Source of the DNA: a virus | Taxonomy: Duplodnaviria > Caudoviricetes | Reading direction: 5' to 3' (one strand) | Length of the DNA stretch: 64,000 bases | Virus record (IMG/VR): IMGVR_UViG_3300047565_000101 | Location: 32,001-96,000 of that record | Part shown: one piece after another, positions 8,282-64,000 of the stretch | How the letters are laid out: each line of letters opens with the position of its first letter | Position numbering within the stretch: the stretch's first letter is position 1 | Position numbers and translations under genes: made by a program | The notes under the pieces: model-generated | What the model saw: only the letters and a program-made list of their open reading frames with translations | Database searches by the model: none | What the model was told of the DNA's origin: nothing

Positions 8282-9670
8282 TTATGAAGTCCAAACTAAT
8301 AGCACATCGCCATTTGAGCTTCTATCTGTTAAATAAACACTGGAGTCAGCCGTAAATCCACCCTGTGTAATGGTATACATATTTCTAAGACCCCCTGAAT
8401 TAACATTTGCAGTACCAGCTACTTGAGCAGATTTTGCTACCTCAACCTGTCTTCCAGACTCATCTCCAAGATATACTCTACCCCCATTTGTTGAATCTGT
8501 TGTTAATATGTTTGTTCCAGCGATAAAATCTTTTATTTGGAAAGATGATCCAGTAGATGAGATTACAATGTCTGAGCTTAAAAATATGTTTCCTCCATTA
8601 ATCATAGAGATTGTTGCGCTATTACTAATTGAAATAAGAGCTCCGTCATCAGTAATCAACCAGCCATCTGTGTCAGATCCTATGTATCCAGATGTAGCAT
8701 TTACCGTACCAGTAATAGTTAGATCTGTTCCGTCCCATGTCATATTCTTATCTGTTGTTCCGACTTTAAATACACCAGTGTTATACCAATAATTGTCTGT
8801 ACCCATGTAAAGACCATCATTTGTACTGTTTACATTTGTTCCGATCTTCATGCTACCAGCCGACATATATCCGCTAAATTCTCCAGCTGTCGCTGTGATT
8901 GTTCCCTTAATTGAAAGATCGCCATTAGTGTCAAATGATAATATTGCGCCAGCTACTGTTCCGCCTGATCCAAATACTTCAAGAGGATTACCAGTTCCAC
9001 GAATAATTACGTGCTTGCCAGAGGTTGAACCTACTGTAATTGTTGAGCTTGAGCTAAGAGTTCCAGTTGCAATCTTGTCAGCTGTTACAGTTATAATTCC
9101 GCTATTAGAAACTTTGCCAACTCTTACTGGGTTTCCTGTTGCAGCAACTGCTGATGATGCGTCACCAGCTCTATTGAAAGCAACGATTTTAATATAGTAA
9201 TCAACATCATACGATATCGTTAGTGATCCATTAACAACTGTATCTACTCCTAGATAGACAGAGTTATTATTATTTGCAAAATCTAATACATCAACAAAGT
9301 TAGCACTAGGACCAGAATCTGCTGGTGTAAATGAAGAAGATGTGCCAATATAAATCTTTGCATAGTCAGACTGATTTGACTGATTTGCACCAGTTGAAGT
9401 CTTTCCATTCCAAGATACTTCAATTGCACCTAGGACTGGTCTTACCGTTGGTGTTGATGGGTCTGATGGTGCAGCTAGCTCTATCGCTGGGACTTCTACA
9501 TTTTTAACAGCTGACCAATTGCTAAATGTGCCATCTTTATATTTCCATCTAAATTGAATTGGGTATGCGTCTGCTACATCCGTTAGAGCAAGGTCAGTAA
9601 TAGTAACATTAAAATAGTTACCATTTTCAAATGACTCAGAGGTGTCTTTTAGCAGATCTTCATATGCCAT
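8282..9670 (-). CDS. minor tail protein (FN3-like plus beta-rich fibre)
   Basis: Position, G/S/T-rich sequence, VTADKIATGT motif. Confidence 0.65.
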   Translation of the reverse strand: MAYEDLLKDTSESFENGNYFNVTITDLALTDVADAYPIQFRWKYKDGTFSNWSAVKNVEVPAIELAAPSDPSTPTVRPVLGAIEVSWNGKTSTGANQSNQSDYAKIYIGTSSSFTPADSGPSANFVDVLDFANNNNSVYLGVDTVVNGSLTISYDVDYYIKIVAFNRAGDASSAVAATGNPVRVGKVSNSGIITVTADKIATGTLSSSSTITVGSTSGKHVIIRGTGNPLEVFGSGGTVAGAILSFDTNGDLSIKGTITATAGEFSGYMSAGSMKIGTNVNSTNDGLYMGTDNYWYNTGVFKVGTTDKNMTWDGTDLTITGTVNATSGYIGSDTDGWLITDDGALISISNSATISMINGGNIFLSSDIVISSTGSSFQIKDFIAGTNILTTDSTNGGRVYLGDESGRQVEVAKSAQVAGTANVNSGGLRNMYTITQGGFTADSSVYLTDRSSNGDVLLVWTS

Positions 9671-30873: not shown

Positions 30874-32613
30874 TTATACGTTTTGTACAACTATCCAGTC
30901 ATTATTATAGGCTTTAACTGGGCTTTCTGTCAGCGTAATTGTCGCATCTTCAACCAGCACAAGGCTGTTTCCAGTGTATGCATTGTAATGATCCTGCGTG
31001 TCCTCTAAAGAAAACTGGTCTTCATAAGTAGCTATATTCTGATATAAAGCTTCTACGGCACCATAGAGAGAGTGGTTAAATTTAATTACATTTGAAATTG
31101 GCTGTGTAAACACTATAACAACATGATGTAGCTGGCCAGTCTTAAATACGTTAGAAACGCTTGTTTCAGATACCTTATCAACACCATTTACATATATGGC
31201 AGAAATATTAGACTTTGATATTGTGCCAGAATTTCTCCAAGAATAATTAGCAGCAAAATAATTAGTGTCCGCTACTGCTGATACTAGGCCACTATCAGTT
31301 AATGCATATGGGGTATAGAAAAATTCTAATGTATTTACAAGCATATCTGTTGTTATATAGAACCCTGAGTCTTGAACGGTCTTTACTCCATTGAGGTCAT
31401 TTCTGGACAAAATTGGATAAAGCTTGCTTCCAAGGTCAACCTCAAGAGAAGTAACATTTGAATCATCTTCAATCTTTGACAGGTAAGATGGATAATTTGT
31501 AGCATATATCTTTTGGTCATTATAGAATCGCATAGTCAAGTACGTTATCTCTGGGTTATACTTGCTATCATCTGACGTGCTTAATGTAACTCTTATATAT
31601 AGAATTCTTTCATCAGAGAAGCCCACATCACCAATTATATATTGTGGAATGGATCTTCCATTAACACACTCTACATAGGTTTCTCCATCAATACTTGTTT
31701 CTACTGTTACTAGCTCTCCGCCGTCCCATTCTATATAAGAGTCATCTATAGTCAATCCAGATGGAATAGAAATAACATCATCAAATGATACTGACTGGAT
31801 GTCGCCATTTTCAGTAGTAATTTTTAATGACTTTTTTACTTCATCATATTCTAATAAATCTGAAGCAAAGTATGAAAAGCTTTTATTTCCTGGATAGGAA
31901 TAGGAATACTGCTTTGATATTCCGTTATCAAATATCTCAAATAAATGTCCATTATTAGGAGCTACTACCTGAAGTGCTGGCATCCCGCTTCCATACACAT
32001 AGTGAACATAAATCCTGTTGCCACTAAGAGAGTACTTATATAAGGATACGCAATTTATTAAGAATGTGCCAGATGTTGCCTGACTCTTTAATGTTATAGA
32101 ATCGGCAGTAAATTTATCAGATGAAGTTTGAACAGTAGAAACAATTAAGCCATCTACGTATAGCTGAATTGAATTAATTGAATATACTGCTACAACATGA
32201 ATTACTTTATTCGGATTGGGGACATGGTATCTTATGTTTGTATGAGATACATCAAACACTAAAGATGTCTTGTCCCAGAAGACTCCGATACCTTCTACTG
32301 AATCCGCAACAATTGGCATAATAGTCGTAGACCCTAAATCATTTGGCTTAAACCAAAATTCTATTGAAAATGCATTGTAGTCATTTCCAGATGTGCCTAT
32401 GTCTGTGATCTCAGGGTACGTGGCATAACTTGAACTTGAAATACTAGTGGCAGTTAGACAGCCAGTTGTGATTGGAACAAGGTCAGTTATTCTTGTTCCA
32501 GTAAAAGTGCCATCTAAATTAAATGAAGATAAATCAGATGCTGATGATCCAGTATCATCCATCAAATAAAAAAATGACGGGCTGTCTGCTAGGACTGCTG
32601 ATTTATAGGACAT
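30874..32613 (-). CDS. virion protein with LamG/concanavalin-like domain
   Basis: FSIEFWFK, HVVAVY and LYVDG motifs. Confidence 0.7.
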   Translation of the reverse strand: MSYKSAVLADSPSFFYLMDDTGSSASDLSSFNLDGTFTGTRITDLVPITTGCLTATSISSSSYATYPEITDIGTSGNDYNAFSIEFWFKPNDLGSTTIMPIVADSVEGIGVFWDKTSLVFDVSHTNIRYHVPNPNKVIHVVAVYSINSIQLYVDGLIVSTVQTSSDKFTADSITLKSQATSGTFLINCVSLYKYSLSGNRIYVHYVYGSGMPALQVVAPNNGHLFEIFDNGISKQYSYSYPGNKSFSYFASDLLEYDEVKKSLKITTENGDIQSVSFDDVISIPSGLTIDDSYIEWDGGELVTVETSIDGETYVECVNGRSIPQYIIGDVGFSDERILYIRVTLSTSDDSKYNPEITYLTMRFYNDQKIYATNYPSYLSKIEDDSNVTSLEVDLGSKLYPILSRNDLNGVKTVQDSGFYITTDMLVNTLEFFYTPYALTDSGLVSAVADTNYFAANYSWRNSGTISKSNISAIYVNGVDKVSETSVSNVFKTGQLHHVVIVFTQPISNVIKFNHSLYGAVEALYQNIATYEDQFSLEDTQDHYNAYTGNSLVLVEDATITLTESPVKAYNNDWIVVQNV

Positions 32614-50397: not shown

Positions 50398-50643
50398 ATG
50401 ACTGAAGATAACAAAGAGTCAAGTCTAGAAGAAAACCTAGATATGGCACAATATATAATGCTTCATAGAATATATGACATCCTAACGCTACTAGCAAATA
50501 ATATAGTTGGATCTGATAAGACGTCAAAGATGGTACAGTATCATGAGCAAGGATTCCTATTAGGACCAAACCCATCCTACTCGGCAGATGTTGAAAACAT
50601 AGAAGAAAATTCTTATCAAGAAACTATTGACTTAGAGCTGTAG
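50398..50643 (+). CDS. hypothetical protein
   Basis: ORF with RBS. Confidence 0.6.
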   Translation: MTEDNKESSLEENLDMAQYIMLHRIYDILTLLANNIVGSDKTSKMVQYHEQGFLLGPNPSYSADVENIEENSYQETIDLEL

Positions 50644-53484: not shown

Positions 53485-53569
53485 TGCTACTATTATAGTA
53501 TATTGATCTTATTAAGTGCAAAATGCAGTGCGCCGAAAGTAGAGAACACATTTTAGCTTTTCATATTTG

Positions 53570-53644
53570 TAGGCCTAATCGGATTTGAACCGATACTCGA
53601 TTGTATATAAGACAATTGCTTTCACCAGATTAAGCTATAGGCCC
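53570..53644 (-). tRNA. tRNA-Ile (anticodon UAU)
   Basis: Acceptor stem GGGCCTA/TAGGCCT, D-loop GG, anticodon arm ATTGT-CTTATAT-ACAAT, T arm ATCGG-TTCAAAT-CCGAT; no encoded CCA. Confidence 0.9.
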
Positions 53645-55156: not shown

Positions 55157-55431
55157 TATATTCTAGTCGACTGCTATTTCAGATTTAGCAAAATGTTAAT
55201 AAAATTTTATTTTTGAAAAATGTCTCTACATAGAGACCATACCAAAGCTGCTGAGAAAATAGCCCATAGTAATATCATTAGATCCATCATGTCTATTATT
55301 ATACCCCGCCTTTTATTCCAGTTGACTACTATCTCGTTTTTAGCAAAATGTTAATAGAGATTTTATTTGTATGATACACACATATAGAAATGTCCGTTTT
55401 GTCCGATAGTCCGCCCATATGACTGGTCATA

Positions 55432-55447
55432 TGTGAGCCATATCACA
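55432..55447. promoter_or_regulatory. CRP/GlxR-type box, first of at least 10
   Basis: TGTGA-gccata-TCACA; others at 55905, 56527, 56650, 57565, 59228, 59332, 60100, 61328 and 62545. Confidence 0.7.
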
Positions 55448-55494
55448 AACTATTTTCTTGAAATGTCCGACATGTCCGATTTTGGATTTGATAT

Positions 55495-55517
55495 TTGTCA
55501 GTCCCCCATGTTAAGCT
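55495..55517 (+). promoter_or_regulatory. PafBC/RecA-NDp-type promoter 1
   Basis: TTGTCAGTC-N8-TAAGCT. Confidence 0.7.
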
Positions 55518-55550
55518 TTATATATAAAGTTAAAGAAGAAAGGAGTTCAC

Positions 55551-55727
55551 ATGAACTCACTATATATGCCAGCGGATAGCCTTAAGCCTATCCTCCACCG
55601 TCCTACTACTATGGGACAAGGTGCAACACCTTGCACGAACTGTAACGAAACAGTTCAATTCAATACATGGAATCGACGATATGAAAATGTCGCAACAGGT
55701 TCTATCCGTTGTGCGGAGGCTAAGTAA
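55551..55727 (+). CDS. small early protein (58 aa)
   Basis: AGGAG RBS; CTNC motif. Confidence 0.6.
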   Translation: MNSLYMPADSLKPILHRPTTMGQGATPCTNCNETVQFNTWNRRYENVATGSIRCAEAK

Positions 55728-55903
55728 TGACTAACAAGAATTGGACAGAAATCACCATGAAGAATGGTAAGTTCCTTGAGGGTGTAGTAACTATCGAAAC
55801 CGATACACATGTATCACTATATAAACTACCTTTCCCTATCGCTAAGAAGAACATAGCGACACGAAACGAACGCCGTTTGGTAATCACCACCCAAGCCTAC
55901 TAG
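55727..55903 (+). CDS. small early protein (58 aa)
   Basis: TAATG coupling. Confidence 0.6.
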   Translation: MTNKNWTEITMKNGKFLEGVVTIETDTHVSLYKLPFPIAKKNIATRNERRLVITTQAY

Positions 55904-55936
55904 GTGTGAGCAACACCACACCAAATAGCCTTGCAA

Positions 55937-55959
55937 TTGTCAGACTTATCTGATACCTT
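55937..55959 (+). promoter_or_regulatory. PafBC-type promoter 2
   Basis: TTGTCAGAC-N8-TACCTT. Confidence 0.65.
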
Positions 55960-55994
55960 AATCTTATTGAACTACTAAAGAAAGAAGAAACAAA

Positions 55995-56165
55995 ATGTCA
56001 TACGCAAGCGATTCAGTATATGGTCACTCATACTCTAAGTGGGATACTATTCAAGAAGATGTAGCAGATATGTATCTTGATGATGTCGAAGATGTCGAAG
56101 AAGATTTTGACCTTGATGATGTAGAAGATGTAGAGTTTGACCTAGATGAGTGGGAGGAGATGTAA
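55995..56165 (+). CDS. highly acidic 56-aa protein
   Basis: ...YLDDVEDVEEDFDLDDVEDVEFDLDEWEEM. Confidence 0.65.
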   Translation: MSYASDSVYGHSYSKWDTIQEDVADMYLDDVEDVEEDFDLDDVEDVEFDLDEWEEM

Positions 56166-56223
56166 TGACTATCCTCTTACTAATAACTGTCCTTTATTCT
56201 TTCCTAATGATTGGATTCATGAA

Positions 56224-56427
56224 ATGAGCGAGGGTATCTTCACAATAGAATTAGGATCGCATGGCTTTATGCTTGATACTGATTGGGCTTATGTATCTCT
56301 ATCATGGGAGCTACTAATCTCCACCGCCGTTATTATTGTCGGTGCTAAGGTATACAATAAGATAAAGAATAGTAAGAAAGAAACTCCCCTACTAGTTGAT
56401 GACAATGATGATTGGATGACAAAATGA
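56224..56427 (+). CDS. small membrane protein
   Basis: MSEGIFT start; one TM helix. Confidence 0.55.
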   Translation: MSEGIFTIELGSHGFMLDTDWAYVSLSWELLISTAVIIVGAKVYNKIKNSKKETPLLVDDNDDWMTK

Positions 56428-56691
56428 CCAGAGCAATTACTAGCCTAGTTCAAACCTTTATCGCTATCCCCGCCCTATATATGGCGAGAATCGTAGGGCG
56501 TGAGGTAATCGCAGACATGCGAGAGATGTGGCAAGAATCACATTAGCCTAACGGCGTGTCGCCTTGACAAAGTCGGCATCCGCCCCTAGCTTTTTGAGGG
56601 CGCTGTCAAGTCGAATTACGGCGTGTCGCAAAAAAATCCTGAAAATTCCTGTGATCTTAAACACACGACACACCTAGCGATATCACACAAT

Positions 56692-56714
56692 TTGTCGGTG
56701 GGGTGCGCTACAAT
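56692..56714 (+). promoter_or_regulatory. PafBC-type promoter 3
   Basis: TTGTCGGTG-N8-TACAAT. Confidence 0.8.
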
Positions 56715-56745
56715 TCTCATATCAACACAACGAAAGGTGGACACC

Positions 56746-56907
56746 ATGTCTTCACTATATCCAATCCGCTCTATATGCGGAAACACAACCTCATACCTAG
56801 ACGGGTATGACCTTGCACATAACAATGCAGTTATCTGTTGCGATAATTGCGAAAGCATTTTGATGTGCCGTAAGGCGTGGCTCTCAATGTATGCAGGGGG
56901 TAAGTAA
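56746..56907 (+). CDS. small Cys-containing protein
   Basis: GAAAGG RBS; MSSLYPIRSICG. Confidence 0.6.
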   Translation: MSSLYPIRSICGNTTSYLDGYDLAHNNAVICCDNCESILMCRKAWLSMYAGGK

Positions 56908-57252
56908 TGACTATCTACGCTATCACTTCAGACTATGAAGCACCTTATGAATATTTTGCTAACAAGGTAGACGCTATTCGTGCCCTAGGTGAGGGCAAGG
57001 CTTACAATATTAAGTTTGATTACATCATAGAAATTGAGGTTAAATAAATGATTACTCTAAATTGCCGCTCATGCGATGAGCCAATGGAATCTATGTGGTT
57101 TGATTCAAGCGACATAATCGAATGTCCAGACTGTTGGGGGGATTTTGAATAATGGAAAAAGATATTTTTGGTTTTGCCGATGCTATCGAAATTGACCACC
57201 TCACCGATGAAGAAATGAAAACTATTCTAGAAATGTTTGGAGATAAAAACTA

Positions 57253-57432
57253 ATGATGACTAAAAAAGACTATGAGCGTTTCGCTTATCTACTTAACTCT
57301 ATCAATAATGGCTTTCCCGATTTTGAGGCTAAGCGTTTTCTAGTTAACAATATGTGTGAGATATTCGAAACGGATAACCCCCGTTTTGATCGTGCTAAGT
57401 TTAAAGAGGCGGTGTATGCTACATCACAGTAG
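57253..57432 (+). CDS. small protein of the MTxKDY...DNPRFD family
   Basis: Manual translation; paralog of 58346-58531. Confidence 0.65.
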   Translation: MMTKKDYERFAYLLNSINNGFPDFEAKRFLVNNMCEIFETDNPRFDRAKFKEAVYATSQ

Positions 57433-57627
57433 CTACACGGCGTGTCGGCTTGACAAAAGCTGATCCGCCCGCAAAAGCGTGGGGGACTGGTCACATTTAA
57501 GAAATGACCATTTTTTCCCTGAAATTTCGGCGTGTCGATTTGACAGACAATTCGGACATTTTGATGTGACTCTAATCACACGAACATCGTTCCATATTGT
57601 GAGATAAATGCGTGTCGGATTAACAAT

Positions 57628-57650
57628 TTGTCAGACCCCTAGGCTATAAT
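57628..57650 (+). promoter_or_regulatory. PafBC-type promoter 4
   Basis: TTGTCAGAC-N8-TATAAT. Confidence 0.8.
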
Positions 57651-57683
57651 ACTCTTATACAAACAAACGAAAGGTGACAACTT

Positions 57684-57887
57684 ATGTCAGCAAATGTCTA
57701 CTCTGTCCGTGACTTGCTTATCGGCAAGCGTTACAACTCTTCAACTCTTTCAGGCGTGATTCTTTCCGCCGAAGACCACCCTCATGCCGTATGGTATGAG
57801 GGTTGCGATTCTTACCTCGTAGAGGTTAAGCCAGATAATTCTATCGGCACAACTTTCCGCACAGTTGCCGTAAAGGTAGGTGCATAA
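57684..57887 (+). CDS. small early protein
   Basis: RBS after promoter. Confidence 0.7.
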   Translation: MSANVYSVRDLLIGKRYNSSTLSGVILSAEDHPHAVWYEGCDSYLVEVKPDNSIGTTFRTVAVKVGA

Positions 57888-58010
57888 TATGGGAAGCCTA
57901 GAATTCTTTAAAATAGATGAAGACGGCGCAGGCTGGGTTTCATTCAATGAATTATCAGATGAAAAGAAACTAGAAATTGAAATAGAATTATTTCAGGAAG
58001 GTGCGCTCTA

Positions 58011-58217
58011 ATGTATAAAGTAACTTGCCAATATGATTTCGAAGAAAGTCCTCATTGGACTGGTCGCTATGATGACGAAATGGAAGCATGGCGCAATTTC
58101 TTTCTCTTCACCGATTGGGGAATGGCTAACGAATACTCAACTGTAAATATTTATACACCGTCAGCAAAATGCTACACAAAGATTTTTTACCGAGATGGAA
58201 GGGTCGTAACAAAATGA
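58011..58217 (+). CDS. small early protein
   Basis: Coupled ORF. Confidence 0.65.
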   Translation: MYKVTCQYDFEESPHWTGRYDDEMEAWRNFFLFTDWGMANEYSTVNIYTPSAKCYTKIFYRDGRVVTK

Positions 58218-58345
58218 GCATGCTATTAATCCCAACACGGGCAGGATATATTTATGAATGCCCTGAATGCGCTAGACGATTTGACCCTAGCGATATTATT
58301 GACTCATTAGAATTGACAACTGGACACGATTGCGAGGCTAAATAA

Positions 58346-58531
58346 ATGATGACTAGAAAAGACTATATCGCTACCGCCGAGATTCTAAAGTATATGAGCA
58401 ACAAAACTCACCCCGCTTTATTCTCTAAGGTTGTTACAGATTTTGCGGAGATGTTTGCAAAAGATAATCCCCGCTTTGATGTTGTTCGATTCCATGAGGC
58501 TAGCAACTACGAAATGAAAGTGGTGAAATAA
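58346..58531 (+). CDS. small protein of the MTxKDY...DNPRFD family
   Basis: Paralog of 57253-57432. Confidence 0.7.
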   Translation: MMTRKDYIATAEILKYMSNKTHPALFSKVVTDFAEMFAKDNPRFDVVRFHEASNYEMKVVK

Positions 58532-58798
58532 TGTTGAAGGATATTATTGCTAATGAATGTTTAGACTGTGGAGAGATTGCTTTCGTGTTTGATAATGATG
58601 GGTGGATCGAATTGATGGGGTGCGCTTGCGTTGATGGCATGAATGATTTAGATTGGGTGAATGAGCCATAAAATAAATTAAATTAGACGGCGTGTCGACT
58701 TGACAAAAGTCGATGCTGCCCGCAAAGGAGCGGGGTCGGGCGTGTCGTTAAGAAGATGATCTAGATCACCCTGGAATTTACGGCGTGTCGTTTTTGAT

Positions 58799-58821
58799 TT
58801 GTCGGTCACACATGGTATAGT
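58799..58821 (+). promoter_or_regulatory. PafBC-type promoter 5
   Basis: TTGTCGGTC-N8-TATAGT. Confidence 0.8.
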
Positions 58822-58849
58822 TCTCTTAAATCAAACGAAAGGTCAACTC

Positions 58850-59023
58850 ATGAAAACTATTGAACTTCTTGGCAACCGTGATGAGGTTGTTATTCTTTAC
58901 ACCGCTCTCGTTAATCTCATGGACATCATTGAAGATAACGGCAATGCATACGGCATGGCTCAGCCAACAGCAGATTTACTTGAGCAGATTACATATATCA
59001 AGAACACATGGGAGGAAAACTAA
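58850..59023 (+). CDS. small early protein
   Basis: GAAAGG RBS; MKTIELL. Confidence 0.6.
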   Translation: MKTIELLGNRDEVVILYTALVNLMDIIEDNGNAYGMAQPTADLLEQITYIKNTWEEN

Positions 59024-59232
59024 TGGAATACAAAGTATATTGCATGGCTGGTGACAACTGTGGCCAGTATATCATTCTAGATGACTACGAATATGGTTTC
59101 TATGATAACGACTATATTTGCGGTGATTGTCAGAATGCTGAAGATATGGATCTTCATGATTGGTATGATGACGGAGATGACAGTTATTCCCTCGCTTCCG
59201 CTGGCTTTGGCTCAGACGAAGACTATATGTGA
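59023..59232 (+). CDS. acidic Cys-containing protein ending SLASAGFGSDEDYM
   Basis: Coupled ORF. Confidence 0.65.
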   Translation: MEYKVYCMAGDNCGQYIILDDYEYGFYDNDYICGDCQNAEDMDLHDWYDDGDDSYSLASAGFGSDEDYM

Positions 59233-59383
59233 TTCAATTCACACCCTTCCCGCTTGACAAAGCGGGTTAGGGCCCCTAGATCTATGGGGGCAAAACTCTT
59301 GTTACGTCAAGTTACGACACACCCTGGAAATTGTGGTGTTTATCACATTCTAAATATGCGACACGCCGAGGATGGATTAGGAT

Positions 59384-59406
59384 TTGTCGGTGCAACACGC
59401 TATAAT
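59384..59406 (+). promoter_or_regulatory. PafBC-type promoter 6
   Basis: TTGTCGGTG-N8-TATAAT. Confidence 0.8.
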
Positions 59407-59435
59407 ACTCTCATACCAACAACGAAAGGCAACAA

Positions 59436-59693
59436 ATGACAACTTCAACAATTAACTTCGTTAAGTTTCCGTTTACTTATCAGGGCGTGAACTTTGTATC
59501 TCGTATCTCAGAGGAATCTCGTTTTCTTCCGCAAATTAAGGCTATGGGGCAGGCGTTTATTGATATGAATATTTCAGCAATAGATGAAGTTATGCCAGAC
59601 CTAGTATCACTTAGCATTAACCAATTAAATGAGCGACTTGCTCATATCAACGACGGTGGAACAGAAATGTTTCTAGAATTGGAAGGTAACTAA
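59436..59693 (+). CDS. hypothetical early protein
   Basis: RBS after promoter. Confidence 0.7.
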   Translation: MTTSTINFVKFPFTYQGVNFVSRISEESRFLPQIKAMGQAFIDMNISAIDEVMPDLVSLSINQLNERLAHINDGGTEMFLELEGN

Positions 59694-59695
59694 TA

Positions 59696-59971
59696 ATGGG
59701 ATACACAACAGCGCTATCACTTGCAGAAGATGTGTCTATTGACGCAGGACTTGCTTATCACTTACAGGCTAATCATTACCCGCCCGTCCCTGTATCTATG
59801 GTGGATGCTTGCATCGAAGCCATCGACGCATACCATGAAGAGGACTATCAGCGACTAATCGAACTTCCAGCTGGCGTATCATGGCGTGGAGAAACTTCAT
59901 GCCCTGCATCAGCAATCGTAGAAGCGCATCACCTAGATGCTTGGCTACCACAGGAGGAATACTATGAGTAA
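59696..59971 (+). CDS. hypothetical early protein
   Basis: HLQANHYPPVP...HHLDAW. Confidence 0.7.
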   Translation: MGYTTALSLAEDVSIDAGLAYHLQANHYPPVPVSMVDACIEAIDAYHEEDYQRLIELPAGVSWRGETSCPASAIVEAHHLDAWLPQEEYYE

Positions 59972-60104
59972 TCTTTATTCTATCTTATCAGAGCTTCACC
60001 CGAACGGTGACTTTACAGAATCTGATCTATGGGATGCTATCGCAGAATCAGAGGGAGTAGATGTCTACTCAATTATGGACGGAGACCTAACAGACTATCT
60101 GTGA
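59964..60104 (+). CDS. small acidic protein (46 aa)
   Basis: GGAGG RBS; manual translation. Confidence 0.55.
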   Translation: MSNLYSILSELHPNGDFTESDLWDAIAESEGVDVYSIMDGDLTDYL

Positions 60105-60132
60105 TTTAATTCACAGCCACAGGGCTAGACAA

Positions 60133-60155
60133 ATGTCAGACCCCACTGCTATAAT
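60133..60155 (+). promoter_or_regulatory. PafBC-type promoter 7
   Basis: ATGTCAGAC-N8-TATAAT. Confidence 0.75.
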
Positions 60156-60190
60156 ACTCGCATAACAACAACTAATAGAACGGAAGCAAA

Positions 60191-60368
60191 ATGACAATCA
60201 ACCAAAAGACATACGAAGTAGGCGACCTATTCACGACTCTTTCATCAGGCGTGACAGGTACAATTACTGAAATCGTCAAGAACGCATCTGGCTCGGTGCG
60301 TGTTAAGTTAGATACAGATAAGGGAGAACGCTGGACAACAGTTTCAGCCGACTCGCTTTCATAACTAG
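60191..60368 (+). CDS. small SH3/KOW-like protein (end approximate)
   Basis: YEVGDLF...GVTGTITEI...VRVKL...RWTT. Confidence 0.55.
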
Positions 60369-60434
60369 ATAATCGAAACAGGTGCAGTTTGAGGGAGTTC
60401 TCGCACAATGTCGTAAGTAAGAACCCTCACTAAT

Positions 60435-60457
60435 TTGTCAGACAACCATGTTATACT
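60435..60457 (+). promoter_or_regulatory. PafBC-type promoter 8
   Basis: TTGTCAGAC-N8-TATACT. Confidence 0.8.
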
Positions 60458-60491
60458 AACCAACTAAACCAACCAACGAAAGAGGAATAAA

Positions 60492-60893
60492 ATGGCTAGA
60501 GGCGTATCAGTTAAGGTAGCAACAACTAAGGTAATCAAGGCTCTTGAAACAAAGTTGGCAGAAGGCAAGTCTGCTATGACTAACAATGAGAAGAAGCGCA
60601 AGGAATACGAAAAGACAGAGAAGGCCTGGTCTAAGGAAGTTGCCGATATTGTCTTTAAGCAAATCTCAAAGGCAGAAGTAAATGCACATGAGAACTGGCG
60701 TGGAGAAACAAACATCAACATTACAGTTCCTGCCAATGTAATCAAACTTCCTGAGAAGCCTTCTATTGACCTAGAGCGTGAACTAGGTGCGTATGAGATT
60801 CAGGAGATTGAGAACGCAATTCGTATTCTCAAGATGACAGATGAGGAAACAGTAAATGCTGCGACCTTCAACAAGTTGTCACAGTATCTATAA
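60492..60893 (+). CDS. hypothetical early protein
   Basis: GAAAGAGG RBS. Confidence 0.75.
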   Translation: MARGVSVKVATTKVIKALETKLAEGKSAMTNNEKKRKEYEKTEKAWSKEVADIVFKQISKAEVNAHENWRGETNINITVPANVIKLPEKPSIDLERELGAYEIQEIENAIRILKMTDEETVNAATFNKLSQYL

Positions 60894-60931
60894 ATAAATA
60901 AAGTTGGTGGGGCTGTTATTCCTTACCAAAA

Positions 60932-60958
60932 CGACCTGAGTAAGTCGCCAAACTGCTC
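60932..60958 (+). ncRNA. H-type pseudoknot motif, copy 1
   Basis: CGAC-CTGAGTAA-GTCG-CCAAAC-TGCTC. Confidence 0.55.
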
Positions 60959-60993
60959 ACACCTTAGGGTGTCCCTACTAACAAAGGCAACAA

Positions 60994-61230
60994 ATGAAAA
61001 ATCGTTATCGTATTGAAATTTACGACGACATCAAATCAAATGATTTGACAATCAACACAGACACCTTCACAGATATTCAAGGTCTGCGAAATTATATGCA
61101 CAAGAACATTTCAAAGTTTAGCACCAAGGTTCGTGCATATGTTTATGACAATCAAGAAAACAAGAAAGTTCTAGCAGCTTTCTTACCAATGGAAACAGTT
61201 CAAGCTTTAAAGAATAAAGTTTCCGTATAA
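60994..61230 (+). CDS. hypothetical early protein
   Basis: ORF with RBS. Confidence 0.7.
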   Translation: MKNRYRIEIYDDIKSNDLTINTDTFTDIQGLRNYMHKNISKFSTKVRAYVYDNQENKKVLAAFLPMETVQALKNKVSV

Positions 61231-61381
61231 TACTAAGAGCTGGGGATCTCTTTAAACTCCCCGCCTTGCCCCCAAAGGTATGGGGGCATTTTAGCTGTTA
61301 CGTCAAGTACCAAAACACCCTGAAAATTGTGGGATCGATCACATTCTCAGCATCTGAGATAGAATGTAATTAGACTATCAT

Positions 61382-61404
61382 TTGTCGGACCCGCCTGTTA
61401 TAAT
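61382..61404 (+). promoter_or_regulatory. PafBC-type promoter 9
   Basis: TTGTCGGAC-N8-TATAAT. Confidence 0.8.
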
Positions 61405-61435
61405 TGCCTAATCAATCAAACGAAAGAGGAAAATC

Positions 61436-62449
61436 ATGGCTCATAATCTCGAAACTGTAAACGGTGAAGTTGCTTTCGCATTGCGTGGTGCACCTGCATG
61501 GCATAATCTCGCAAACCGCATTTTCTCTAAGGATGAGGAAGTTTCGACTCAACTCATGCTCGATGAGGCTAAACTTTCCAATTGGAATGTTCGCCTCTCT
61601 CCACTAACTGATCACATCTCTGAAGAGTGGAGCGATGTTTCAAACTCTCACCTTGTATTGCGTACTAATCCTTTTAATGGCGGAACTGATGTTCTAGCTA
61701 ATGTTGGAAAGCGTTATAAGGTAGTTCAGAATGAGGAACTATTTCAATTCGCTGATTCAATTCACGATGCAGACCCTAATTGCCGTTGGGAGTCTGCTGG
61801 CTCTTTGCGTAATGGTAAAGTCGTATTCGGTACTGTTGAAATTCCTCGCACAATGGTTTTAGACCCACAAGGTGCGAACGATGAGACAAAGCTTTATCTT
61901 ATCGTATGGACATCACATGACGGTTCTGTTGCTGTTCAGGCTGCTGTAACCCCTGTTCGTGTTGTATGCCAAAACACTTTGAATCTTGCAATGCGTAATG
62001 CAAAGCAATCATTCAAGATTCGCCACACGCAAACCGCAGAAGGTAAGATTCAAATCGCACGTGAGACTCTTGGCTTAACTCTAGGCTACTTTGATGAATT
62101 CGAAAAGCAGGCTAAGGCACTATTCGAAACATCTGTTACCGATGCAAAGTTTCACGATATTATTCGTGCAATGTATCCAAAGCCTGCTGAAGATAAGTCA
62201 AAGCAGGCTCTCACAAAGTGGGAAAATAAAGTTACTCTCATCGATGACATTTATTTTAACTCACCAACTCAGACTAACATCAAGGGCACCGCTTGGGGTG
62301 TAGTTAATGCGCTTACTGAGCGCCTAGACTACTTCCGCTCAGGGCGTGGCAACTCTGAAACACTCATGGCGGGTGCATCAGGCTTTGACCCAATTCTTAC
62401 CGCTGAGAAGAATAAAATCGTAAAGCAGGTAATGTCCCTAGCGGGTTAA
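61436..62449 (+). CDS. DUF932 family phage/plasmid protein
   Basis: PAWHNL, YKVVQN, ESAGSL, SHDGS, PVRVVCQNTL, RHT and GTAWG motifs. Confidence 0.85.
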   Translation: MAHNLETVNGEVAFALRGAPAWHNLANRIFSKDEEVSTQLMLDEAKLSNWNVRLSPLTDHISEEWSDVSNSHLVLRTNPFNGGTDVLANVGKRYKVVQNEELFQFADSIHDADPNCRWESAGSLRNGKVVFGTVEIPRTMVLDPQGANDETKLYLIVWTSHDGSVAVQAAVTPVRVVCQNTLNLAMRNAKQSFKIRHTQTAEGKIQIARETLGLTLGYFDEFEKQAKALFETSVTDAKFHDIIRAMYPKPAEDKSKQALTKWENKVTLIDDIYFNSPTQTNIKGTAWGVVNALTERLDYFRSGRGNSETLMAGASGFDPILTAEKNKIVKQVMSLAG

Positions 62450-62454
62450 TAACC

Positions 62455-62481
62455 TCTCCTGAGCATGAGATAAAACTGCTC
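62455..62481 (+). ncRNA. H-type pseudoknot motif, copy 2
   Basis: TCTC-CTGAGCAT-GAGA-TAAAAC-TGCTC. Confidence 0.55.
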
Positions 62482-62586
62482 ACGCTACGGCGTGTCGGCT
62501 TGACAAAAGCCGATCAGGGCCCCCAATGTTACGGGACGGGGTGATGTGTTACGAATCACATTTTAAATCCCTGGAATCCTTGCTAT

Positions 62587-62609
62587 TTGTCAGTGGTGTC
62601 CGCTATAAT
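62587..62609 (+). promoter_or_regulatory. PafBC-type promoter 10
   Basis: TTGTCAGTG-N8-TATAAT. Confidence 0.8.
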
Positions 62610-62616
62610 ACTCCAC

Positions 62617-63183
62617 ATGACAACGAACTGGAACAAGTACACATACGTATGCAACACATGCGATGGTCTATTTGAAATGACCATCCAGGCAACCAGAACA
62701 ATCGATCAAAAGCTTTGCCCATCTTGTTTTAATACAATGACATATTTGTCAGTGGCAGATGCTACAATACCTTCTACAACAACAACGAAAGAGGAACCAA
62801 TGATTGAAAACGCATTACCTGAAGTAACTGCTAAAATTGCAGAACTCGAAGCAACTCTTAAGAACCACCAGAACTGCGATTACTGGAAGTCAGAGAATGG
62901 TCGCATCGGTTCACAACTAATTAATCTAATCAATACTGCATATGAGAACGATGCAGAGGCGTCAGAGATTCTAGAATCAATCTGTGAAATCATTGACTAC
63001 AATCCTGTCAAGACAGTACAGTTTGAGGGCGTAATCCACTTCTCAGGTTCTATCGATATTCCAATGAACGAGGTTGCAGACTTTGACCTCACCTCCGCCC
63101 TTGAAGATGTCTACGTAGACATTAACAACGGCAACGTGGTTATCGATAACTACGAACTCTACTCAGTAGAGGAGCCTTACTAA
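62617..63183 (+). CDS. zinc-ribbon plus acidic-domain protein; second in-frame start at 62800
   Basis: CNTC...CPSC; internal promoter and RBS. Confidence 0.65.
   Translation: MTTNWNKYTYVCNTCDGLFEMTIQATRTIDQKLCPSCFNTMTYLSVADATIPSTTTTKEEPMIENALPEVTAKIAELEATLKNHQNCDYWKSENGRIGSQLINLINTAYENDAEASEILESICEIIDYNPVKTVQFEGVIHFSGSIDIPMNEVADFDLTSALEDVYVDINNGNVVIDNYELYSVEEPY
62746..62768 (+). promoter_or_regulatory. PafBC-type promoter 11 (intragenic)
   Basis: TTGTCAGTG-N8-TACAAT followed by ACGAAAGAGG RBS. Confidence 0.75.
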
Positions 63184-63404
63184 TGTATTTTGAACTCACC
63201 GCACCCAACCAGTCTGCCCTGAAAGGGGCATTCTGGGAGGCGGATGTAATTGGTCTTGACCCTGAATGGATTAAAGACACTCTAACATTCGTAGTTGGAA
63301 CTGGAACAATTGAGAAGGTCTCAAAGCTGCGAGATAAATTTAATCTAATTGAATCATACACATCAGAATACGAGCCCTACCATGCATACAAAGGAAGCAA
63401 ATGA
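63183..63404 (+). CDS. hypothetical protein
   Basis: Coupled ORF. Confidence 0.65.
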   Translation: MYFELTAPNQSALKGAFWEADVIGLDPEWIKDTLTFVVGTGTIEKVSKLRDKFNLIESYTSEYEPYHAYKGSK

Positions 63405-63583
63405 GAATCAGTTGTGATCGATGCGGAATATCTGCAGAGGCAAAGTATGTAGTTAAACTAATTGAAGGCGAATTAGCATTCTGCGGACACCATTATAATA
63501 AGTACAAAGAAGGTCTTGACAAAATAGCGTTTGAAGTAGTAGAATTAGCAACTCAACCAGAACTAGTAGAGGCGGAAGTATAA
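63401..63583 (+). CDS. small zinc-binding protein
   Basis: CDRC...FCGHH. Confidence 0.65.
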   Translation: MRISCDRCGISAEAKYVVKLIEGELAFCGHHYNKYKEGLDKIAFEVVELATQPELVEAEV

Positions 63584-63966
63584 TGGGAGACAGAGCAAAC
63601 TTCGGATTCAAGCAGTCTAACGGTGAAACAATTATTCTCTATGGTCATTGGGCAGGCCACGACATGCTTAAGAATTTGGCAAAAGCCGTAGAGACAGCAC
63701 GTCCTCGTTGGATAGATGAGGCATATGCAACACGTATTGTTGTCTCTCAATTGGTTGGCAATGATTGGACCAGCGAGACAGGTTGGGGGCTCTCAGTAAA
63801 TACTATTCTAGACAATGAGCACAAGATTCCTGTTATCGATTGGCGCAGTGGTACCTTTAGCCTTCATGAAGAGGGCGACTGGAATGAAGACACCAAGGTC
63901 CGTGGAATGTTGGATGAGCCAATGTTCACAATGACACTGGAGAACTTCATCAAGAAATATATTTAA
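63583..63966 (+). CDS. hypothetical protein
   Basis: MGDRANF...LYGHWAG; coupled ORF. Confidence 0.7.
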   Translation: MGDRANFGFKQSNGETIILYGHWAGHDMLKNLAKAVETARPRWIDEAYATRIVVSQLVGNDWTSETGWGLSVNTILDNEHKIPVIDWRSGTFSLHEEGDWNEDTKVRGMLDEPMFTMTLENFIKKYI

Positions 63967-64000
63967 CTAAATAAAATGGTGCCTCTATAGTCGACATCTC

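Follow-up and report, generated by a model that had tools for sequence, protein, structure and literature searches.

The phage sequence studied here, a 64,000-nucleotide (nt) window comprising positions 32,001 to 96,000 of IMG/VR record IMGVR_UViG_3300047565_000101 (Caudoviricetes), carries a cassette of small genes whose promoters share the bipartite motif TGTCRG-N10-TANNNT. Judged by this motif and its setting, the copies are real promoters of the class read by the actinobacterial activator PafBC, and we find it quite probable that host PafBC and the sigmaA polymerase would activate the cassette when single-stranded DNA (ssDNA) appears, on top of a basal level of firing, CRP probably being a second input. 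The promoter class itself is an established one. In the literature that we searched, which left most subscription papers outside, neither a PafBC regulon in a phage nor the large-scale adoption of such promoters by an apparently lytic phage was described, in agreement with an earlier note on this window, which knew of no described phage program built this way.

The published PafBC consensus is tGTCgg(N10)tA(N3)T, with its -26 element at -28 to -23; PafB contacts the GTC through R46 and R50, PafC holds sigmaA region 4, and the -35 element is unused (PMC8635444). The phage motif matches this consensus exactly, which bears out its earlier assignment to the PafBC -26/-10 hybrid promoters.

Promoter array in the phage and its clade

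A pattern scan of the window gave 13 plus-strand matches against 0.95 ± 0.89 expected, and none of 100 shuffled windows had 13 or more. All 11 copies reported in the earlier note are among them, with starts that had been given one base too early; the true TGTC starts are the first coordinates of the promoter lines below. The two extra matches, at 9076 and 56337, both lie within coding sequence without a leader and are probably due to chance. The spacing had been described as invariant, and spacers of 7, 8, 9, 11, 12, and 13 nt indeed yielded just 0 to 4 matches each. Nearly every site points in one direction, toward a start codon 20 to 45 nt downstream that is equipped with a ribosome site; this site is of the GAAAG type after 9 of the 11 copies (the exceptions are 62588, which looks leaderless, and 60134, which has a variant site). 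The leader lengths and the one probable leaderless start fit a transcription start about 7 nt past the -10.

The predicted promoters in the window, with the probable chance match in the cassette, are as follows.

55496..55517 (+): PafBC-type promoter (-26 element and -10), heads open reading frames (ORFs) 55551-55727 and 55727-55903
55938..55959 (+): PafBC-type promoter, heads ORF 55995-56165
56337..56358 (+): exact motif match in coding sequence, without leader or ribosome site, probably chance
56693..56714 (+): PafBC-type promoter, heads small ORFs 56746 to 57432
57629..57650 (+): PafBC-type promoter, heads small ORFs 57684 to 58671
58800..58821 (+): PafBC-type promoter, heads ORFs 58850 to 59232
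59385..59406 (+): PafBC-type promoter, heads ORFs 59436 to 60104, no extended -10
60134..60155 (+): PafBC-type promoter, heads ORF 60191-60364 (57 amino acids [aa]), variant ribosome site
60436..60457 (+): PafBC-type promoter, heads ORF 60492-60893
61383..61404 (+): PafBC-type promoter, heads the DUF932 gene; of 44 distinct upstream regions of orthologues, 43 have the motif
62588..62609 (+): PafBC-type promoter, heads a probably leaderless gene with its ATG at 62617
62747..62768 (+): PafBC-type promoter in the 62617 reading frame, heads a downstream start near 62800

The whole genome contains 16 plus-strand matches and 1 minus-strand match. Fourteen copies head genes of the single small-gene cassette, 3 of them past the end of the window (window-equivalent positions 64210, 64886, and 65272). 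The claim that every promoter of the array is built on the motif stands for the 11 copies in the window and fails for the final two genes of the cassette beyond it, an Lsr2-like gene of 46 aa and an ORF of 95 aa, which are both on ordinary -35/-10 promoters. Ordinary TTGACA-N17-TANNNT promoters are also present elsewhere in the genome, and the replication and virion genes retain promoters of the ordinary kind. Three of the copies (62747, 64886, and 65272, the last two being L003:12086 and L003:12472) sit within upstream reading frames, so that the motif is maintained within coding sequence.

The virus record is 104,800 bases long and is rated 97% complete; the bases at its start are repeated 208 bases before its end. 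The phage encodes WhiB, which indicates an actinobacterial host, and it presumably comes from freshwater. Searches for tyrosine and serine integrases found none in this genome and in four near-complete relatives, and the clade is apparently lytic. The genome is colinear, in inverted orientation, with that of Streptomyces phage Samisti12 (cluster BE), with identities of 57% for the terminase and 56% each for the capsid, portal, and polymerase. The gene at window position 50398 has a homologue that, in Samisti12, adjoins the edge of the direct terminal repeat (10,666 bp), and DUF932 and Lsr2-like genes are common to that repeat and the phage cassette. Given the same flanking genes and this shared content, the cassette is the positional counterpart of the BE terminal repeat, a position that suggests early expression.

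The motif scan that had been proposed for the whole genome and its relatives finds the array to be clade-wide and to match the PafBC consensus. In 80 IMG/VR relatives, there were 1140 motifs on the sense strand and 3 on the opposite strand, and changing the spacer from 10 nt to 9 or 11 nt reduced the 1140 matches to 3 and 2, respectively. All seven of the near-complete relatives have 13 to 20 copies, nearly all within one block, and a more distant contig (DUF932 identity of 52 to 55%) has 9. To avoid circularity, promoters were also collected by the -10 and ribosome site alone, with the motif unused. Among the 299 distinct promoters obtained in this way, 285 have TGTCRG at -28 to -23 and 294 have the GTC triplet, while TTGAC is found in 2 and the information content at -37 to -32 is <0.1 bit. 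The -26 element reaches 1.7 to 1.9 bits per base, and a perfect TTGACA is present in 0 of 648 promoters. The earlier observation that the element stands in for the -35 is thereby confirmed for the clade.

The same array was not found in any of 16 cultured actinophages carrying DUF932, which have 0 to 3 copies each and whose recognizable promoters are ordinary. Because the relatives share the array while the Samisti12 repeat uses ordinary promoters, the switch from ordinary -35 promoters to the PafBC type is a trait of this phage clade. Single PafBC-like promoters do occur in cultured phages, namely, in the Samisti12 terminal repeat (L086:8038-8059), in Microbacterium phage Pickles13 upstream of ssb (L258:91), in mycobacteriophage Huphlepuff (L273:1661), and in Microbacterium phage Magritte (L275:1377).

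Candidate hosts and the reader of the -26 element

That the predicted host should carry pafBC holds for the candidate Nanopelagicaceae, the host itself being placed only to phylum. WYL genes are present in 81 of 81 Nanopelagicaceae genomes, with tandem pairs among the matches listed. One such pair from an acI genome matches the solved PafB (E 2.7e-32) and PafC (E 1.5e-32) and keeps both of the DNA-reading arginines, and in Planktophila versatilis the PafB/PafC-like pair sits upstream of tatC and a helicase gene. The motif is found upstream of recA in 27 of 30 acI genomes, a sample that looks rich in close relatives, and the remaining 3 have a C at -28. The acI recA and phage promoters have spacer preferences in common, with TGGC after the hexamer and CTGC before the -10, and upstream of its -10 the phage promoter at 62747 is nearly identical to the acI recA promoter. 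In the acI recA promoter, the -10 is usually weak and a LexA box comes after it, whereas LexA boxes lie near only 2 of the 1140 phage promoters. In single acI genomes, the motif is also located upstream of dinB, ssb, yneA, and the genes for a RecB-like nuclease and a DEDD exonuclease. Genome-wide, about 10 to 14 exact matches are found in acI, which is not clearly more than in the reversed control, as a small regulon would lead one to expect. The surface-protein-like phage gene that was used as a host marker was not found in 301 genomes of the class and 101 of the family, and DUF932 had 4 matches among 401 Nanopelagicales genomes, the best at 55 to 57%.

Some further acI loci carry the motif. 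In strain IMCC19121 (L213, G005:C1:822749-825327), six PafBC motifs lie within 2.6 kb upstream of small orphan genes, some of them divergent, and by its promoter sequences this is a host island wired like the phage cassette. In two genomes, G004 and G001 (L153 and L156), the motif lies 24 nt upstream of a gene of 160 aa that reads as carD from its sequence and has no NCBIfam match at the cutoff used, and at two other loci (L181 and L203) it lies upstream of cytosine methyltransferase genes.

On the phage side, the earlier note had offered a WYL mimic encoded outside the window as an alternative reader. This idea is not supported: a search for WYL domains in the whole genome and 40 relatives, of which seven are at least 90% complete, came back empty, HTH_PafC and sigma region 2 were likewise undetected in the phage, and nothing in it matched the profiles made from the PafB and PafC proteins of acI. 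Since no WYL, PafC helix-turn-helix (HTH), or sigma gene was detected, a mimic is unlikely.

The mechanism that we favor is that host PafBC would insert into the sigmaA polymerase at the phage promoters ("sigma adaptation"), PafB contacting the -26 element at its GTC and PafC contacting sigmaA region 4, and that these contacts would make a -35 unnecessary. The clade has replaced the ordinary -35 promoters of its small-gene cassette by promoters of this class, and expression would run at a low PafBC-independent level and then rise strongly once ssDNA activates PafBC. The activation of PafBC requires ssDNA of at least 6 nt, and RNA and cyclic AMP (cAMP) are inactive (PMC11804915). The ssDNA might come from end resection of or nuclease attack on phage DNA, from phage replication, from the breakdown of host DNA, or from existing damage, and with several candidate sources the cassette could be either a first-entry block or a delayed, conditional one. 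The host, the binding of PafBC, the timing, the source of the ssDNA, and the role of CRP are all parts of this picture that we infer.

The probable second input is cAMP-CRP. Of 924 promoter regions, 540 have CRP/GlxR-like palindromes upstream; the centers peak at -54.5, -64.5, -74.5, and -84.5, and the best period is about 10 bp. In this genome, the boxes of nine promoters are centered at -53.5, -54.5 (twice), -63.5 (twice), -73.5, -75.5, and -84.5 (twice). The 10-bp phasing suggests a second regulator acting from one face of the helix, and of the five acI genomes searched, four have a gene for CRP. In Escherichia coli, class I CRP sites (TGTGA-N6-TCACA) are centered at -61.5, -71.5, and -82.5, and the phage peaks are about 3 bp off these positions. 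The following palindromes, which have no strand, are given with their centers relative to the inferred transcription start.

55432..55447: CRP/GlxR-like palindrome, center -84.5, 55496 promoter
55905..55920: CRP/GlxR-like palindrome, center -53.5, 55938 promoter
56650..56665: CRP/GlxR-like palindrome, center -63.5, 56693 promoter; second box at 56527
57565..57580: CRP/GlxR-like palindrome, center -84.5, 57629 promoter
59332..59347: CRP/GlxR-like palindrome, center -73.5, 59385 promoter; second box at 59228
60100..60115: CRP/GlxR-like palindrome, center -54.5, 60134 promoter
61328..61343: CRP/GlxR-like palindrome, center -75.5, 61383 promoter
62545..62560: CRP/GlxR-like palindrome, center -63.5, 62588 promoter

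Several points weigh against activation by host PafBC. The relatives are close (80 to 95% DUF932 identity), meaning that the promoter counts are not independent events. WhiB places the host only to phylum, the link to Nanopelagicales is a weak one, consisting of one related phage contig (with 9 such promoters) in one metagenome-assembled genome bin, and HTH_PafC reaches the Pfam cutoff in 102 of 151 genomes across the phylum, a tally that takes in seven unpublished genomes (G729, G745, G773, G792, G810, G840, and G864), which enter into none of the other results. Injected phage DNA is double stranded, whereas PafBC requires ssDNA (PMC11804915). Finally, 303 of 359 distinct promoter cores have a -10 with at most one mismatch from TATAAT and 209 of 359 have an extended -10, and with such a strong, often extended -10, firing without PafBC is possible.

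A more far-reaching version of the PafBC explanation, which we put forward tentatively and regard as rather doubtful, is that the clade does not encode a regulator to control the first block of genes and that the ssDNA alarm of the host, tripped by the processing of incoming DNA by the host, would together with cAMP-CRP launch takeover or antidefense genes and so gate infection on the state of the cell.

A different reader, a non-WYL activator encoded by the phage, could recognize the -26 element as MotA/AsiA do in T4 (PMC8635444), and besides this precedent the phage does have WhiB, a 48-aa protein with weak similarity to HTH/sigma region 4 (E 1.9e-4), and many conserved ORFs without a known family. 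However, WhiB-type genes are present in cultured relatives, and the 48-aa protein and the WhiB-region genes are shared with Samisti12, all without the array; a PafB-like HTH was not found in the phage; and the motif reproduces the recA promoter of the host down to the spacer bias, so that host PafBC would bind it regardless. We consider such an activator unlikely. WhiA and WhiB as readers are ruled out by geometry, the element being fixed at -26 with no -35, whereas the WhiA box (GACAC) lies upstream of the -35 element at variable spacing (PMC10243135). Separate GGCGTGTC boxes are found at scattered positions.

It is similarly improbable that these are constitutive extended -10 promoters, perhaps activated by CRP, with the -26 element as a minor booster or a relic. 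The near-consensus -10 in 84% of the cores, the extended -10 in 58%, and the phased CRP-like boxes would fit such promoters, but variation in the spacer and the genes leaves the -26 element intact in 95% of promoters, its conservation far exceeds that of the extended -10, and 42% of the cores have no extended -10 at all. Least credible of all is that the sites chiefly act as decoys, sequestering active PafBC (and CRP) and so dampening the damage response of the host, with transcription being secondary. The roughly 14 strong sites per phage genome rival the exact matches of an acI genome in number, and a reported link of PafBC to mycobacteriophage resistance would agree with decoys, but nearly all of the sites are one-directional and precede start codons with ribosome sites, PafBC occupies its motif as a component of the polymerase complex (PMC8635444), and decoys need neither strand bias nor leaders.

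Other features of the cassette

The remaining features of the cassette in window numbering are given here.

55400..64000, running on to ~66,700 (+): small-gene cassette, counterpart by position of the BE terminal repeat
61436..62449 (+): DUF932 gene, 337 aa, ~51% identical to terminal-repeat gene 2 of Streptomyces phage Samisti12
56553, 57439, 58689, 59253, and 62489 (in the cassette): inter-operon modules, GGCGTGTCG and tandem hairpins

Each inter-operon module runs in the order GGCGTGTCG, a hairpin with a TTGACAAA loop and varying stems, a second GC-rich hairpin, CCTGRAA, and a CRP-like box, and GGCGTGTCG is the reverse of the WhiA box. From this layout, the modules are probably terminators together with a putative binding site. 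The TTGACA of the modules was rejected as the -35 of a promoter; it is mostly hairpin loop and is not followed by a properly spaced -10.

Searches of Pfam, PHROGs, and the ESM Atlas named no gene functions in the cassette beyond DUF932, DUF1281_C, and the Lsr2-like gene. The DUF1281_C (Api92-like) gene (L003:11460-12140, window-equivalent 64259) is driven by a PafBC-type promoter, and the Lsr2-like 46-aa protein is encoded at L003:13453-13593 (window-equivalent ~66250; phrog_6269, E 5e-7). The DUF1281_C family and DUF932 are typical of plasmid leading regions. A paralogous gene pair at 57253-57432 and 58346-58531 encodes proteins of 59 to 61 aa without a known family and is kept in 3 of 3 relatives tested. 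In the AT-rich gap immediately upstream of the cassette, there is a 55-bp imperfect direct repeat (55159-55213 and 55314-55368), which is possibly located at the genome end or origin. A tRNA-Ile with a TAT anticodon is encoded at 53569-53644 (-), and ten further tRNAs lie outside the window.

Comparison with known systems

WYL proteins are host sensors that switch on repair and antiphage genes, and a lytic phage running a gene block from such a sensor would turn the alarm of the host to its own use. A 2025 report by Rafique et al. (cited in PMC12848934) is said, going by its title alone, to link PafBC to mycobacteriophage resistance. With the system described here, one can test directly whether infection by a phage produces the ssDNA that activates PafBC, the clade supplies several hundred natural variants of PafBC promoters, and the array marks which of its orphan genes merit testing for antidefense activity. 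The phased boxes also suggest that CRP can act together with sigma adaptation, a combination of which we found no description in the literature searched.

The phage promoters are like the actinobacterial PafBC promoters, such as recA P1, in their identical bipartite motif, 10-nt spacing, invariant GTC, and lack of information at -35. They differ in that about 14 copies are packed into 10 kb in front of mostly orphan small genes in a genome with no detectable integrase, and in having a stronger -10, no LexA box, and phased CRP-like boxes. Compared to the terminal repeat of the BE phages (Stanwilliamsviridae), the cassette has the same position and the same makeup of many small genes with their own promoters, but the Samisti12 repeat uses ordinary -35/-10 promoters, with one PafBC-like site per repeat. 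The middle promoters of T4 are similar in that they too form a phage promoter class apart, which the housekeeping polymerase reads with an upstream element in place of the -35. However, T4 encodes its activators (MotA/AsiA) and remodels sigma region 4, whereas no activator was found in this phage and the element is that of the host. The coupling of phage gene expression to a DNA damage signal of the host is familiar from lambda induction and from Bacillus phage GIL01, where it is tied to the SOS response through LexA/RecA. Those phages are temperate and respond by relief of repression, while the phage described here, in which neither an integrase nor LexA boxes were found, would be positively activated through a LexA-independent sensor.

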